Virus record (IMG/VR): IMGVR_UViG_2541047784_000014 | From: a virus | Taxonomy: Duplodnaviria; Heunggongvirae; Uroviricota; Caudoviricetes | Reading direction: 5' to 3' (one strand) | Length of the DNA stretch: 39,296 nt | Shown here: positions 6,573-34,573 of the stretch, piece after piece | Position numbering within the stretch: the first letter of the stretch is position 1 | How the letters are laid out: each line of letters starts with the position of its first letter | The notes under the pieces: generated by a model | Databases searched by the model: none | Told to the model about the DNA's origin: nothing | Seen by the model: the letters and a program-made list of their open reading frames with translations, nothing else | Translations under genes and position numbers: made by a program

Positions 6573-6664
6573 TTTACATCGCACTCCTCTTGTGCCATAG
6601 TAATCGGGCACTGGCAAAATCCAGTGCCGGGATTGGTCTCCCGGATTACTACAGAGGCACATAT

Positions 6665-6684
6665 GCCGCATAAGCGGTTTTTTT
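6665..6684 (+). terminator. Putative Rho-independent terminator
   Basis: Short hairpin CCGC-ataa-GCGG followed by seven T; preceded by a stable hairpin GGCACTGG-caaaat-CCAGTGCC (6607-6628). Confidence 0.45.
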
Positions 6685-6838
6685 ATGTGTAAAGCGCACC
6701 TATTCTATGGTGGGCTGTGTGGGGGCACCGAAAGGTGCGCCGGGTTCCTTTGTAGCCGGTAAGACCAACTCTGCACAGTTCACCACCATCTGATTGGTCT
6801 CAGCGGTGGTGATTAACCTAACTACAAAGGTGATCGCC

Positions 6839-22878: not shown

Positions 22879-23171
22879 TCCTGTTCACTGGCCTCTTTGG
22901 CCATCTTCAAATACTGTTCAGGGCAATGCGCCATAACGCGCTGAAACAGTTCCAGCGCCAGATTGCGTTGCCCCTCATTAAATGCCATTGCCATAGCATC
23001 CATCGGAGAGATAGCGGAAAACACACGGCCTTTCTCCAGCACCGACCAGACAACGCGACGCCCCTGTTCACTGCTCATGACAAAGCGAATGTCATCAATT
23101 TCACGCTGTGCCATGTCACGTTGCTTACGGGCGTTTTCTTCTTTCAGTTGATCGTCTTCGTAATCTGTCAT
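22875..23171 (-). CDS. Hypothetical protein between portal and scaffold
   Basis: 98-aa ORF, start overlapping the portal stop (translational coupling). Confidence 0.55.
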   Translation of the reverse strand: MTDYEDDQLKEENARKQRDMAQREIDDIRFVMSSEQGRRVVWSVLEKGRVFSAISPMDAMAMAFNEGQRNLALELFQRVMAHCPEQYLKMAKEASEQE

Positions 23172-24847
23172 TGTGATTGCCCACCCTGACCACTAACTGC
23201 ATTCGCCATAGCTGACAAAACACTCGGATCCGAAGTTTTAGCTTCGCTTAGCGTCTTGGCACCCTGTGCCGCCGCCATCCCCATCGCCATCATTTGTTGC
23301 TGCTGTTGTTGCTGTGCCCGTTGCTGGCGAGCCTGCTCAACCTGTTCCTGCGGAACAATGACGGTTGGAGACACTCCGGACATATCAGCGAATGCATCGA
23401 TCGCCTGATCAACGTTGAGTTTGTCGAGAGCTTCTGGTTTCGCTTGCGCAAGTTGACCAATGAAGTTGACCGTAGACGCCAGACTGGACAGGCCGATAGA
23501 CTTCTGCGCCTGAGCCATGACGGAAATGTATTCGACCTTCAGGGGCATACCTTCCATCGCGTCAGGCGGTGGCGGCAGCATGTTTTTACGCACCATCATC
23601 GAGAAAGCGCGGTCAATGAGAGGATTAAGACATTCGTCGTTCAGACGCTCCAGAACCGGCCCCAACATCAGAAGTTTTTCTTCTTTCATTTCGATCACCG
23701 CTTCAACAGGCATCGAGCGGGTATTGATGTTCTGCAACATCATGAACAGATCGACAAAGTAGGCGCTGTTAATGATTTGACGAGTGTCCTGAATGTCTGC
23801 CACCAAATCTGCTGTACTGGGGTTAACCAGATAAGCAGGTCTGAAACCATCCTGACCAGTAATCTGATCGATATACGTGATGTCGCCAGGAAGAAGGGAG
23901 GCACGCTGATTCTTGAGGGAAGTCGGAGCAACCATCGGCGGATTGGTGGCTTTATCAATCAACTGCGACTTGCGCTTCTGGAGAAGCTGCAATGCCTTAA
24001 CAGGTCCAAGCGCCAGCATACCCGGGCATGATGATCCATAAACATCTTCGCCGTTAACTTCCCAGCGCGGAGCCATAATTGGAAACTCATCGAATCCGGA
24101 CTCACGCAACAACTTGTCGTTATCGCCACCAACCTCGTAATAAACCGATTTGAATGGCTTGTTCTTGCTATCCAGCTTCGATGTATCGCGGTCAATGTTC
24201 GGGTAAACCGAATGCATCACTTCGATCCACTTCTCGTAGGTGCCGCTTTCCCACATGCTTTTTACGGATTCGCTGACGTTATTTAGCCCGAACTCCTGAA
24301 CAAGCTGACGAACAGTCATAGAGAACTTGCGAAAACAGGTGTCAACACTGCCACGAGGTGAGTTAGCCAGGTAGTAACTGCCTATCGGGAATGGCATTGT
24401 GCGAATGATGTCCTCGTCATCCTCCAGCACTGCCATTGCACCAGTGCTGTATGTGCCGAGGCTTCCGTATAACTGCGGCAGCGACTGATAGAGATTCGAC
24501 TTATTGAACATATCGTTCATGCGGTTCTGCACCGCCTCAAGCCACAACTTAACAGGGCCATAATCCATCATTTCAGGATCTGGCGTAGCCAGGCGAAACC
24601 ACGGACGCGCGGGGCTTGTGATGCCTGACATCATGCCGCTGGCGAGAGTGCGCGCCGCCATAGTCCCGGTCGAATCAATAATGCGTGTATTGCGTCGATC
24701 GTTACGGTTGACCTCAGAAGTCAGAAAGCGGGAACCACGCGGGTTGATGTAATCACTCAACTCGCGCCAGTGCGGCTCGAACGACTGACGCTCGCTTTCA
24801 AGTTGTGCGAACTGTTTGTTCAATCGCTCTTTAGTTGTTTCCGCCAT
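23168..24847 (-). CDS. Portal (head-to-tail connector) protein, T7 gp8-like
   Basis: 559 aa; Gln/Ala/Met-rich C-terminal tail (QQQQQQQMMAMGMAAAQG) resembles the T7 gp8 C-terminus; RBS GGAGTCATTGAA. Confidence 0.85.
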   Translation of the reverse strand: MAETTKERLNKQFAQLESERQSFEPHWRELSDYINPRGSRFLTSEVNRNDRRNTRIIDSTGTMAARTLASGMMSGITSPARPWFRLATPDPEMMDYGPVKLWLEAVQNRMNDMFNKSNLYQSLPQLYGSLGTYSTGAMAVLEDDEDIIRTMPFPIGSYYLANSPRGSVDTCFRKFSMTVRQLVQEFGLNNVSESVKSMWESGTYEKWIEVMHSVYPNIDRDTSKLDSKNKPFKSVYYEVGGDNDKLLRESGFDEFPIMAPRWEVNGEDVYGSSCPGMLALGPVKALQLLQKRKSQLIDKATNPPMVAPTSLKNQRASLLPGDITYIDQITGQDGFRPAYLVNPSTADLVADIQDTRQIINSAYFVDLFMMLQNINTRSMPVEAVIEMKEEKLLMLGPVLERLNDECLNPLIDRAFSMMVRKNMLPPPPDAMEGMPLKVEYISVMAQAQKSIGLSSLASTVNFIGQLAQAKPEALDKLNVDQAIDAFADMSGVSPTVIVPQEQVEQARQQRAQQQQQQQMMAMGMAAAQGAKTLSEAKTSDPSVLSAMANAVSGQGGQSQ

Positions 24848-24861
24848 TTCAATGACTCCGG

Positions 24862-25068
24862 TTACTGACCAAGTAGCGTTTTACCGCTGGTATTAGCGGT
24901 TGATGTGTCGCCCTGAGAACCGGTAAGCAGCGTAGAACTACGACCAGCAGCAGCGCGACGGCGACGAGTTTCTTCGTCGCGGGCATCAACAACGGCGGCA
25001 TCCTGCTCCTGTGGTGCTGCCTGAACTTCTGGTGTTGCAGGCACTGATGGTGAGCTACCCATGCACAT
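24862..25068 (-). CDS. Hypothetical small protein (68 aa) upstream of portal
   Basis: ATG preceded by GGAGTCATTGAT, nearly identical to the portal initiation region; an overlapping alternative frame (24849-25088) is less likely. Confidence 0.4.
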   Translation of the reverse strand: MCMGSSPSVPATPEVQAAPQEQDAAVVDARDEETRRRRAAAGRSSTLLTGSQGDTSTANTSGKTLLGQ

Positions 25069-25157
25069 ATCAATGACTCCGTACGCAATTAAATTATTAC
25101 CAATTTAACCACATATGATTTATTTATCGTAGGTAGTTGACATTTAACGCACAAATT

Positions 25158-25174
25158 ATTACCTTTCAGGTAAC
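25158..25174. promoter_or_regulatory. Dyad operator-like site ATTACCTTTCAGGTAAC
   Basis: Near-identical to the 6176-6192 site; preceded by a TTGACA hexamer (25137-25142) and a shared AACCACATA element (25107-25115). Confidence 0.45.
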
Positions 25175-25494
25175 CAAAGAGTTCATTCCGGTTACTAACC
25201 TGACTGGCTTGTCGTTAAATTGAACAGGTGGAGTGAGCTTTTATTTTGAGCAGTACGGCGTATGGCACATGCGCCGATAGCGGTCTGGATACGTTTAAGG
25301 GGCACCCTCCCTTGCTCGGGCAACGAACCAGGTAGCCGGAATGTGCAAGTCGAGCGGTTTTATTCCGCGCACGGGGATTCACCATCCTGGCGATTCGGTG
25401 TGACGCCTCGGAAGAGACGAGGGTACAACGATGAGAGCATTTATGAAGCCGCGACAAAGTGTGGCGTCTTAACAGGCTAAGTGCTCTCAGCGTT

Positions 25495-25571
25495 GTGGCA
25501 TTAGCTCAGTTGGACAGAGCAACCGCCTTCTAAGCGGTTGGTCGCAGGTTCGAATCCTGCATGCCACGCCA
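25495..25571 (+). tRNA. tRNA-Arg, anticodon UCU
   Basis: Full cloverleaf: acceptor GTGGCAT/ATGCCAC, D-arm GCTC-AGTTGGACA-GAGC, anticodon stem ACCGC/GCGGT with loop CTTCTAA, T-arm GCAGG-TTCGAAT-CCTGC, discriminator G and encoded CCA; close to E. coli argU. Confidence 0.9.
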
Positions 25572-25614
25572 GAATCACGCCTAAGGACCGTGATGCCAGA
25601 AGTTCCAGGGGCTT

Positions 25615-25657
25615 GGCGGTGATGGTTTCCCTTGAAGGACTATCACCGCCCTTTTTA
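25615..25657 (+). terminator. Rho-independent terminator downstream of the tRNA
   Basis: 9-bp stem GGCGGTGAT/ATCACCGCC with a large loop, followed by CTTTTT. Confidence 0.6.
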
Positions 25658-25734
25658 CAGCAGGACGCCATTGCGATGACTTCATGCTGTAAACCCGTAC
25701 AGCCACGGAAGGCAAAACTCATTGCTTCCAGTTC

Positions 25735-25758
25735 GCCCGGTTCGCCGGGCATTTTTTT
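25735..25758 (+). terminator. Rho-independent terminator
   Basis: Hairpin GCCCGG-ttcg-CCGGGC followed by seven T. Confidence 0.75.
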
Positions 25759-25801
25759 AAGGTGTGAATCATGAAATACGAATTCGATGGATTTTGATGT
25801 C

Positions 25802-25813
25802 GTGACATGTCAC
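25802..25813. repeat. 12-bp perfect palindrome GTGACATGTCAC (copy 2 of 3)
   Basis: Identical to copies at 8800-8811 and 28066-28077; followed 4 bp later by a terminator hairpin. Confidence 0.6.
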
Positions 25814-25817
25814 AAAC

Positions 25818-25844
25818 AGCCAGCCGATGAGCTGGCTTTGTTTT
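25818..25844 (+). terminator. Rho-independent terminator
   Basis: Hairpin AGCCAGC-cgatga-GCTGGCT followed by TTTGTTTT. Confidence 0.7.
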
Positions 25845-25887
25845 ATCCTCATCAGAGGATATCAACGATATTATCCCCTCAAGCGGA

Positions 25888-27363
25888 TTAAGCATAGGGA
25901 TCGTAATCTGTGATGGCCTTGCCTTGCTGGTTCTGCTGCCCGGGAATTCGCAGACGCTTCGACACAGGGAACGCAAACGTCAGCAGTAGCGCATCGCCTT
26001 TACCAGGCGAACGCCCAAGCCGCTCCTTGATATCTTCCTTCGGTTCGATAACGATTTTACCGTCCACTCGAACTTTGTACTCTGCCGCCGACAGATCGTC
26101 CGCTGTTTCCTGGTCATCCAGCATCCCGCCCAGCCTCAGCCATGTCTTGCATGAGTTGAACATCTCCCCACGCTTGTTGAGCATCTGCTGGTCAGTAGAC
26201 GCGCCACCGAACGGAACAAGTTGCCATGTGCGCCCCCAACCGTCACCGATTGACTTCAGACCGGTACCGTAACCAAAGTCGATGAACACTGCGTCAGCCT
26301 GATACAGGTCTTCAAAGTCAGCAATACGCTTCGCCATAATCAGATCGTCGGTAGTCTTGTTGCCAGTCCACAGCACCTTACTGTGTAGCCCCTGCCGCAG
26401 GTATATCACCGCGTCATCAACGCCTGAATATGCCGGGTCAACACCGATTATCACCGGAGCATGCGCCACCTGCGCAGCGGTTACCACCCGTTTCATTGCC
26501 TCATCAGTAAGACCGGTAGGGATAAACTGCAATTCAGATGCATCAGGGAATATGCCGCGCACACGGATTTTAACGAAGTCGCTGTCTTCCCCGTAGTCAT
26601 CAACCCATTTCTGCAACTGCTGTTTGTTAGTGCCTTCCACCGTCCGGCTGTCAATCTGCGCAGTTTTCCAGCGGTGTTTATATTTGCGGAAACATTCACG
26701 GAATCGCCCGGTATTACGCGTCGGGTTTCCGAACGCCACCCAGATAATCTCAGTGTCTTCGTCCGTTAGCGCACCTTCGGCAACTTCCCACACCAGATCC
26801 GCAATGTTCGACGCTTCATCGAATACCACGATGATGCGTTTGCGCTCGTTGTGTAGTCCGGCGAATGCCTCAGTGTTGTGCTCAGACCAGGGGATTGCGT
26901 CAGCTCGCCACCGCTTGTCGTGCCCAGGATCATTGCTGTACATCGCGGTAGCGGTACAGGTAAACCAGTCTTTCGTGATAGCAAGGTTCGACCACTTGAT
27001 AATTTCCGGCCAGGTCTTCGTTCGTAGCTGGTTGTCGGTGTTGGCGGTCACCACGACCTTACAATCCTCGCAAGTGGACATGCCCCAGTTGATCAGCATT
27101 GAGATGAATGCGGATTTACCAATACCGTGACCAGAAGCGCGTGCCAGCATAAGCGGCTGATAGCGCGTCTCTGGATTCTGCAGGTGATCACGTATCTCTC
27201 GGAACGCATCAGCCTGCCACTGACGTGGGCCGGTGGCATGTGCCAGTTCAGTCCCCTCTTCCCCCCACGGGAACGCATAGAGGGCATAGCCAAGCGGATC
27301 GTGAGTGAACCCTGCAATATCCTCGATCAACTGCTCTTCAGGAGATAACGCTGTATCTGTCAC
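25888..27363 (-). CDS. Terminase large subunit
   Basis: 491 aa; Walker A-like ARASGHGIGKS in the N-terminal ATPase region; overlaps the small-subunit gene end. Confidence 0.85.
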   Translation of the reverse strand: MTDTALSPEEQLIEDIAGFTHDPLGYALYAFPWGEEGTELAHATGPRQWQADAFREIRDHLQNPETRYQPLMLARASGHGIGKSAFISMLINWGMSTCEDCKVVVTANTDNQLRTKTWPEIIKWSNLAITKDWFTCTATAMYSNDPGHDKRWRADAIPWSEHNTEAFAGLHNERKRIIVVFDEASNIADLVWEVAEGALTDEDTEIIWVAFGNPTRNTGRFRECFRKYKHRWKTAQIDSRTVEGTNKQQLQKWVDDYGEDSDFVKIRVRGIFPDASELQFIPTGLTDEAMKRVVTAAQVAHAPVIIGVDPAYSGVDDAVIYLRQGLHSKVLWTGNKTTDDLIMAKRIADFEDLYQADAVFIDFGYGTGLKSIGDGWGRTWQLVPFGGASTDQQMLNKRGEMFNSCKTWLRLGGMLDDQETADDLSAAEYKVRVDGKIVIEPKEDIKERLGRSPGKGDALLLTFAFPVSKRLRIPGQQNQQGKAITDYDPYA

Positions 27364-34118: not shown

Positions 34119-34271
34119 ATGCAGTGGAAAATCATCAACGGTTGGTACTGCGTTACTGCATGCGGATTCATGAGCTGGAAGTTCCGCACCTTACAGGAAG
34201 GCATTAAGTGGGCTTTCGTCAGCAAAGAAGCTCGCGATGTAGCCAACGATAATGAGATATGGGAGGGCTGA
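34119..34271 (+). CDS. Small ORF (50 aa), first gene of the early + strand operon
   Basis: ATG with GAGGTAAC 7 nt upstream; hydrophobic/aromatic, Cys-containing N-terminal half; stop 2 nt before the next start; below the ORF-track size cut-off. Confidence 0.4.
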   Translation: MQWKIINGWYCVTACGFMSWKFRTLQEGIKWAFVSKEARDVANDNEIWEG

Positions 34272-34273
34272 TA

Positions 34274-34573
34274 ATGAACGTTAATCAGCAGAAAAATCTT
34301 CAAAAAATCATGCTGGCATTCGACAAGGACTACCGCCTGTCAGAACAGCTATATGACCGACAAGTTGAACTGATTGAGAGCATCCGACTTCATCAACTGT
34401 CCTCAACTTTCGACGTTGTAACAGGCAAAGGCGTTCGTCAGGAAGTGCTGGAGGCTGCTAAAGACAGCCCTGAGTTCGAAGAACTGATGGATGCCTACCG
34501 GCGCGAGGCAATGGCAATTATAGCGCGCTGGGATCTGGCGGATCAGCTTGATGGGCAGAGGGACGCGGCATGA
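34274..34573 (+). CDS. Hypothetical early protein
   Basis: Start set at the ATG (MNVNQQ...) preceded by GGGAGGG; stop overlaps the exonuclease start. Confidence 0.6.
   Translation: MNVNQQKNLQKIMLAFDKDYRLSEQLYDRQVELIESIRLHQLSSTFDVVTGKGVRQEVLEAAKDSPEFEELMDAYRREAMAIIARWDLADQLDGQRDAA

Follow-up and report, generated by a model that had tools for sequence, protein, structure and literature searches.

The locus studied here raises the question of what is encoded by a GC-rich segment lying directly upstream of a tRNA gene in a tailed phage. The window, which is the whole stretch of DNA that was analysed, comprises 39,296 nucleotides. The original prediction described positions 25200-25494 as a structured non-coding region, possibly a processed leader or an unclassified structured RNA. 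The source phage is a phiV10/epsilon15-like podophage (Uetakevirus), and the phages phiV10, TL-2011b and vB_EcoP_ZX5 match positions 25000-25700 at 98-99% identity.

Limits, coding status and structure

The element sits in a short plus strand insert, together with tRNA-Arg(UCU). On one side the insert is flanked by the portal and gp3 genes (23168-25068, minus strand), and on the other by the large terminase gene (25888-27363, minus strand), which is convergent with the plus strand unit. The predicted structured segment is present, but its true limits are 25256-25494 on the plus strand, with a 168-nt core at 25256-25423. Positions 25200-25255 belong to a less conserved 5' leader (25173-25255) that contains a hairpin at 25188-25207.

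The GC content is 0.539 for 25200-25494 and 0.569 for 25256-25494, compared with 0.40 for the promoter stretch upstream, 0.49 downstream of the element and 0.48 for the whole window (standard deviation 0.051 for 295-nt windows, 9.5% of which are equally GC-rich). The claimed GC contrast is thus real but modest, as the excess of 25200-25494 amounts to about 1.2 standard deviations and is sharp only against the AT-rich promoter.

Two open reading frames overlap the segment, one of 72 aa on the plus strand (25262-25480) and one of 80 aa on the minus strand, and several GenBank records place hypothetical proteins over the element. No frame is open across the family of 105 distinct members; in each frame, the shortest open stretch across the invariant block measures 9-63 nt, and the core length varies without 3-periodicity. 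The claim that the segment holds no convincing ORF agrees with this lack of a conserved frame and with indels that do not come in threes. By this comparison, the hypothetical protein calls that cover the element in some phage records are spurious.

In brief, the structural model consists of three hairpins, an H-type pseudoknot and a 14-bp closing helix, P6, with near-invariant junctions. In the alignments, invariant blocks alternate with stretches of variable length and sequence, and about 60 nucleotides of the element are near-invariant. Folding of the single sequence is only mildly unusual (z = -2.1 on the plus strand and -1.5 on the minus strand; folding energies -92.3 and -78.3 kcal/mol, respectively), and the evidence for the structure is therefore comparative. 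For 30 modelled pairs counted in 34 diverse copies, standard pairing was seen in 95.7% of the cells; sliding the 3' partners by 1-3 columns lowers this to 26-45%. Compensatory changes on both sides were found in 12 of the 30 pairs, and none of 500 shuffles attained the observed covariation values. Comparative alignment, which had been suggested as a check of the structure, revealed covariation across unrelated phages in P1, P2, the pseudoknot, P5 and P6. Many of the pairs are G-U, corresponding to A-C on the opposite strand, which indicates an RNA read from the plus strand. Taken on this comparative evidence, the element is a structured non-coding RNA and not a chance GC-rich patch.

Helix P1 is the hairpin CGGCGU/GCGCCG (25256-25261/25271-25276) with the 9-nt loop AUGGCACAU. 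One of its pairs changes from G-C to A-U in 14 of the 34 sequences, and its G-U pairs work only on the plus strand. The loop sequence GCACAU is complementary to an invariant AUGUGC (25341-25346); neither side ever varies, and the two could form a tertiary contact or a switch. Helix P2, CUGG/CCAG (25285-25288/25328-25331), closes a stem of variable length and sequence that is extended in the clade of the source phage, and three of its four pairs are changed on both sides (CUGG/CCAG, CCGG/CCGG, CCAC/GUGG). The first consensus given by RNAalifold, in which UCYGG pairs with the invariant CCGGA as P2, was ruled out by the copies with CCAC/GUGG. The near-invariant block GGUAGCCGGAAUGUGCAAG (25331-25349) is the same in the first 12 phages from BLAST. 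The invariant AUGUGC also contributes to P3, GUGC/GCAC (25343-25346/25369-25372), which was modelled by folding the segment in each of the 34 representatives and encloses a variable hairpin, GCGG/CCGC (25354-25357/25365-25368). The P3 partner reads GCAC, GUAC, GCAU or GUAU in most clades and is ill-defined in phages P1 and mEp460.

The pseudoknot is formed by S1, GGGAU/AUCCU (25374-25378/25384-25388), and S2, CACC/GGUG (25380-25383/25397-25400), and its loop 3 is the conserved GGCGAUUC (within 25374-25400, plus strand). Three S1 pairs are changed on both sides (GGGA/UCCU, ACGA/UCGU, ACGC/GCGU, UUGA/UCAA), and S2 shows C-G to A-U in three sequences. The P5 hairpin, CCUCG-GAAGAGA-CGAGG (25406-25410/25418-25422), has three of five pairs changed on both sides, which confirms one of the helices named in the original prediction. 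The other helices named there, CGGAAT/ATTCCG (25337/25362) and GACGCC/GGCGTC (25402/25463), proved to be specific to one clade, as their partners are absent from other clades in alignment A3; the former would also involve an invariant block and a variable loop.

P6 pairs CAACGAUGAGAGCA with UGCUCUCAGCGUUG (25426-25439/25482-25495) around a variable insert (25440-25481), and its final pair involves G25495, where tRNA-Arg begins. All 23 distinct strand pairs form 12-15 bp, and the most divergent variants prefer their own partner. Within the leader, 25208-25250 (GTCGTTAAATTGAACAGGTGGAGTGAGCTTTT) shares homology with a stretch of other copies (L080, L013) that comprises the last part of the P6 insert and the P6 3' strand, and seems to be what is left of a tandem copy upstream. 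Some P6 inserts contain a tRNA T-arm-like sequence, GGTTCGATTCC (L008, L103, L107). Downstream of P6 (as in L080) there is either a genuine tRNA, whose acceptor stem is GUGGCAU/AUGCCAC, or a domain that GUGGUGA/UCACCAC closes. Both features hint at exchange between tRNA and tRNA-like modules around P6.

Distribution and family status

A BLAST search with 25200-25494 showed that the central 170-240 nt recur at 70-82% identity in otherwise unrelated phages. Carriers include the P1-type phages P1, P7, D6, SJ46 and RCS47, the lambdoid phages mEp460, mEp390, cdtI, Ayreon, 2H10, twelve Stx2c phages and Stx2a_1447/WGPS2, further phages of Klebsiella, Salmonella and Enterobacter, and two phages labelled Stenotrophomonas. 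In E. coli, 831 of 5426 complete genomes carry the element, and 356 places are on plasmids; the single plasmid copy inspected is a P1-like plasmid. The exact 19-mer GGTAGCCGGAATGTGCAAG occurs in at least 120 IMG/VR contigs and in 24 species-representative genomes, nearly all of them Enterobacterales. An independent anchor in the P1 hairpin finds essentially the same loci, with the 19-mer off by one base in 4 of about 120. Based on these comparisons, the element is a mobile family common to P1 and the lambdoid phages that lack N.

The covariance model R1, which represents the core in 156 positions, scores 104-163 bits on 88 loci. In the loci and genome parts searched with R1, each phage has just one copy, and the PR operon has none; the exception is one locus (L030, 3999-4957). 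This locus has two copies on one strand downstream of cI, the second of them degenerate, separated by reverse-oriented genes for membrane-like proteins (morons).

A search of 25200-25494 against Rfam 15 gave no match at the gathering threshold or at E <= 10 and found only the tRNA, and the cores of 11 relatives gave no match either. This Rfam/Infernal search is consistent with the term unclassified structured RNA. STnc100/PasD was rejected as an identity for the element; these are unrelated neighbours, and sub-threshold STnc100 scores were obtained only beside the element, in ST64B and P1. The PL leader of ST64B (L164, 7465-7950) is without the R1 core and has a P6-like helix; the domain after this helix, which GUUGUGGUGA...UCACCACAAC closes, scores 35 bits for STnc100 (gathering score 47). 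A similar sub-threshold match lies upstream of tciA in phage P1 (L002, 558-677). There may thus be further families of early-leader RNA modules, as judged from these sequences.

Neither a sequence string nor the topic was found in 8 million full texts; the element appears to be undescribed, though it may have been mentioned before. It is absent from the E. coli K-12 prophage CPS-53, and Salmonella ST64B has no core and only the P6-like module, which may explain its absence from classic transcriptome maps.

Elsewhere in the window, isrK (6608-6684) adjoins a C4 antisense RNA (6703-6790), together a P1-type immI immunity module. The isrK/C4 pair is also found in ST64B, Ayreon and Stx2a_WGPS2.

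Promoter, terminators and downstream genes

A sigma-70-type promoter, TTGACA (25137-25142), a 17-nt spacer and TACCTT (25160-25165), was identified on the plus strand from sequence and promoter scoring. It lies 90 nt upstream of the element, and tRNA-Arg(UCU) follows the element directly (25495-25571, plus strand), in agreement with the claimed position between a promoter module and the tRNA. Transcription is predicted to start near 25172, and the likeness to other Uetakeviruses ends at about 25173. The repeat AAATTATTACC flanks the promoter (25091 and 25153), and the homologous promoter region of epsilon15 is annotated as repressor and IHF sites.

We surveyed the context of 157 loci, placed on the strand of the element. 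An S24 cI-type repressor gene is nearest upstream on the same strand in 64 of these, at a median of 156 nt, a spacing that corresponds to the PL-leader position, as for nutL or putL. About 45 loci occupy the Uetakevirus slot between the portal and terminase genes. In about 19 P1-like loci, tRNA-Ile(CAU) lies upstream of the core, with its end 10-19 nt away, and the start of ban (dnaB) is approximately 90 nt past the core. The lambdoid gene order is cI, the cI terminator, PL, the element and yfdP/yfdQ/yfdR-type genes, and no N gene was found in mEp460, Ayreon or Stx2a_WGPS2. A recent survey also reports such phages as being without N, and guesses at a put-like RNA (PMC12315714).

Promoter scoring of 62 flank classes gave a promoter-like site 7-120 nt upstream of the core in most classes. 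The -10 box ends 7-8 nt before the core in five of them, so that the core would be the 5' end of the transcript there. This promoter-adjacent placing of the core agrees with putL (PMC9378689). The upstream cI genes of the lambdoids, together with the repressor and IHF annotation of epsilon15, point to an element carried in a repressor-controlled early transcript in the lambdoid and Uetakevirus contexts. The ban operon of phage P1, which carries the element, is presumably C1-controlled. In this operon the stop codon of a 14-codon ORF (ATGCCGATT...TGCTAATG; L002, about 1730-1775) overlaps the start codon of ban, which suggests that translation of ban is coupled to a leader peptide.

A co-oriented tRNA adjoins the element in 47 of the 157 loci (about 31%), leaving about 69% without a tRNA neighbour, and in 28 loci tRNA-Arg(UCU) adjoins the end of P6 exactly. 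Since P6 ends at the first nucleotide of the tRNA, cleavage by RNase P would set the 3' end of the element. This junction, the covariation and the lack of an Rfam 15 match support the suggestion of a processed leader or unclassified structured RNA.

Three plus strand intrinsic terminators lie within 230 nt past the co-transcribed tRNA (25615-25845). By terminator prediction, T1 (25615-25656) has a 14-pair stem and a U-tract. T2 (25735-25758), GCCCGGUUCGCCGGGC plus U7, is directly followed by a Shine-Dalgarno sequence, AAGGUG, and an 8-codon ORF, MKYEFDGF* (25771-25797), and T3 (25818-25845) is the last before the convergent terminase gene. T1-T3 are unidirectional, so late transcription on the minus strand would not be blocked.

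The Uetakevirus cassette is ordered as promoter, leader, core, P6, in some cases tRNA-Arg, T1, T2, Shine-Dalgarno sequence and cargo ORF. T2 (GCCCGGTTCGCCGGGC plus T7) is kept, with a compensatory stem change, before differing cargo ORFs in six relatives. The Shine-Dalgarno sequence of these variable ORFs begins within 1 nt of T2 and is followed by ATG, which leaves no room for a promoter; the cargo would therefore be transcribed only through T1 and T2. The cargo genes at this junction in relatives are unrelated, with annotated lengths of 28-175 aa and a 292-aa ORF called in one locus (L014), and the 8-codon ORF at this position hence looks like a stump left after cargo loss. In epsilon15 (L005, 1551-1611), only P1 and the 5' half of P2 are kept; the deletion reaches the 3' half of T1, while T2 and the cargo gene p50 are retained. 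The GenBank record of epsilon15 marks the upstream leader as an RNase III site.

In the lambdoid phage mEp460, the element is separated from the first ORF by a strong terminator (-20.7 kcal/mol) and one further terminator, and no promoter was seen after these two. Across 129 distinct loci, with regions of the same loci as controls, terminator-like hairpins occur at 2.5 per kb in the 500 nt downstream of the element against 0.65 per kb in the controls (about fourfold), and strong ones at 1.10 against 0.10 per kb (about 11-fold); the loci are kin, and the counts are not independent. The first terminator is separated from the core by 150-250 nt of modular sequence, or by a tRNA. About 23% of the loci have no intrinsic terminator predicted within 900 nt downstream, and none is predicted between the element and ban in phage P1. 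In one locus (L073), 30 nt separate P5 from a Shine-Dalgarno sequence and ATG. The element is co-oriented with the cargo and 5' of it in all loci, and the downstream genes have no common function.

Possible functions of the RNA

The RNA structure, its strand and spread, its promoter-proximal position and the downstream terminators are observed in the sequences. The reading that we prefer, and that we hold tentatively and at somewhat less than even confidence, is that the element is a cis-acting processive antiterminator that works like put and is structurally unrelated to it. As the first approximately 240 nt of a repressor-controlled early transcription unit, the RNA would fold co-transcriptionally into a compact pseudoknotted structure and stay on the transcribing RNA polymerase. 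The polymerase so bound would resist intrinsic, and probably also Rho-dependent, terminators further down the unit, and would pass them at a distance of hundreds of nucleotides, beyond the tRNA or modular RNA domains. The put RNA of HK022 makes the polymerase pass terminators from the same position (PMC9378689).

Several lines of evidence argue for this antitermination. The element is a real plus strand RNA at the head of an early unit, close to its promoter and in the PL-leader position of nutL and putL, it is under predicted repressor control, and its lambdoid carriers have no N gene. Terminators stand before the first gene and are enriched downstream, and the Uetakeviruses have no separate cargo promoter. 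The tRNA or 150-250 nt between the core and the first terminator would fit a processive mechanism and speak against a local attenuator or riboswitch. The conserved unpaired nucleotides and the narrow Enterobacterales range fit binding to a conserved host machine.

Other observations argue against it. The copy in phage P1 lies mid-operon after tRNA-Ile, with no predicted terminator before ban, and the roughly 23% of loci without a predicted terminator count in the same direction. Epsilon15 lacks the core and yet keeps T2 and its cargo gene. The element occurs only once in a phage and is missing from the PR operon, and it has no homology to put. Finally, the unit of the source phage is down to tRNA-Arg and the 8-codon stump, with three terminators ending it, so there would be hardly anything left for the proposed activity to act on. 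T1, with its 14-bp stem, was considered as an "antitermination-resistant" terminator (PMC10325885); this is at most suggestive and was not used in the argument, as the terminators of lambdoid copies are equally strong and would need read-through.

The put RNAs suppress termination in cis without phage proteins, and are blocked by mutations in the zinc-binding domain of the RNA polymerase beta' subunit. The element resembles put in being a cis-encoded RNA just after PL in lambdoids without N, with terminators before the early genes, and in having a structure in which unpaired bases are conserved. HK639 likewise carries just one annotated put, in its left operon, and HK639 putL shares with the element the stem sequence CGGCG...CAUGCGYCG and a GGAAGAG motif. 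In contrast, put has two stems in about 70 nt and lacks a pseudoknot, whereas the core of the element spans 145-175 nt and has five helices together with an H-type pseudoknot, to which P6 is added. The element is also found outside lambdoids (P1, Uetakeviruses, Lastavirus) and beside tRNAs, and antitermination is proven for put while we infer it for the element. Homology was rejected on two grounds: R1 finds nothing in HK022 (L134) or HK639 (L135), despite a putL annotated at 34187-34312, and BLAST of HK639 putL finds HK022 putL but only 7-8-mers in the window.

The early-leader place is shared with nut sites, and UGCUCUC/UGCUCUUU in the P6 3' strand resembles boxA. We did not count UGCUCUC as evidence for a boxA, since the string belongs to a helix that covaries, and some copies have an unrelated sequence in its place. 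In one relative (L092), the core is immediately followed by UGCUCUUUAACAA, an exact rrn boxA. Unlike in lambda-type nut regions, the first ORFs after the element are yfdP/yfdQ-like, with no N gene. Processive antitermination from the starts of long operons is also known for EAR RNA of the Bacillus eps operon and for conAn2 RNA of Gram-positive conjugative plasmids (PMC8191782, PMC10325885). Compared by description, these differ from the element in their hosts, so that a resemblance would not be expected, and conAn also requires a protein partner.

An unlikely but still substantial alternative is a stable trans-acting RNA, cut from the primary transcript and acting free early in infection, e.g. 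by binding or sequestering a host protein or defence factor. Release could come from RNase P at the tRNA-Arg 5' end, from tRNA 3' maturation in phage P1, or from nearby terminators in the lambdoids. There are precedents, as species 1 and 2, the stable RNAs of T4, are processed together with tRNAs, and GOLLD and ROOL adjoin phage tRNAs. The likeness extends to structured RNAs found with phage tRNAs, and the 47 loci with an adjoining co-oriented tRNA fit it; but the element is much smaller, has no Rfam match to GOLLD or ROOL, and is without a tRNA neighbour in the majority of its copies. Strong terminators 150-250 nt downstream could bound a discrete RNA, the source phage unit encodes only RNAs, and the invariant single-stranded blocks suit protein recognition. 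A stop at those terminators would, however, leave the early-left operon of lambdoids without N untranscribed. An ORF directly after the core in several loci, e.g. L073, and a position always upstream of co-oriented cargo also speak against a free RNA.

We consider it rather improbable that the element is a sensing, riboswitch-like leader, an RNA-processing or stability element, or a ribozyme that tunes downstream expression, whether by a pocket for a metabolite or signal, by self-cleavage, or as a 5' shield against RNases. Its build is of the aptamer or ribozyme type, with invariant junctions, a pseudoknot and variable peripheral parts (P2, P3 and the P6 insert), it is placed at the transcript 5' end, and AUGUGC could pair with either the P1 loop or the P3 partner, a possible switch. 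Against this, no expression platform overlaps the core, the first terminator being 150-250 nt off, beyond P6 and often a tRNA; the downstream genes share no function, and no Rfam riboswitch or ribozyme matches. Protection of the 5' end alone would not require about 60 invariant nucleotides.

A small protein gene (25262-25480), or a site that acts as DNA (for instance an operator or a site of recombination), has the overlapping ORFs and hypothetical protein annotations in its favour, and is effectively refuted by the sequence comparisons, in which no frame stays open family-wide, indels are not in threes, helix substitutions are compensatory and G-U pairs occur on one strand only.

P1 and the Shiga-toxin phages belong to the best-studied and medically most relevant phages, and an unannotated pseudoknotted RNA with approximately 60 near-invariant nucleotides in their early transcripts would be a gap in the map. 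If the element is an antiterminator, it would explain early-left expression in a large group of lambdoids without N, including Stx2c phages; it would be a second natural RNA that modifies RNA polymerase, open to structural study, and could be used as a portable genetic part. It is possible, though we would not count on it, that a second class of phage RNA that reprograms RNA polymerase to antiterminate processively, unrelated to put in structure, larger, more elaborate and modular, is exchanged among lambdoid, P1-like and epsilon15-like phages and controls the early-left operon of Stx2c and some Stx2a phages. If it is instead a protein decoy, a sensor or a ribozyme, it would be a new class of RNA that is expressed as the choice between lysis and lysogeny is made. 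In both cases, the element merits an entry in the RNA family database, by which spurious hypothetical protein calls would be removed.
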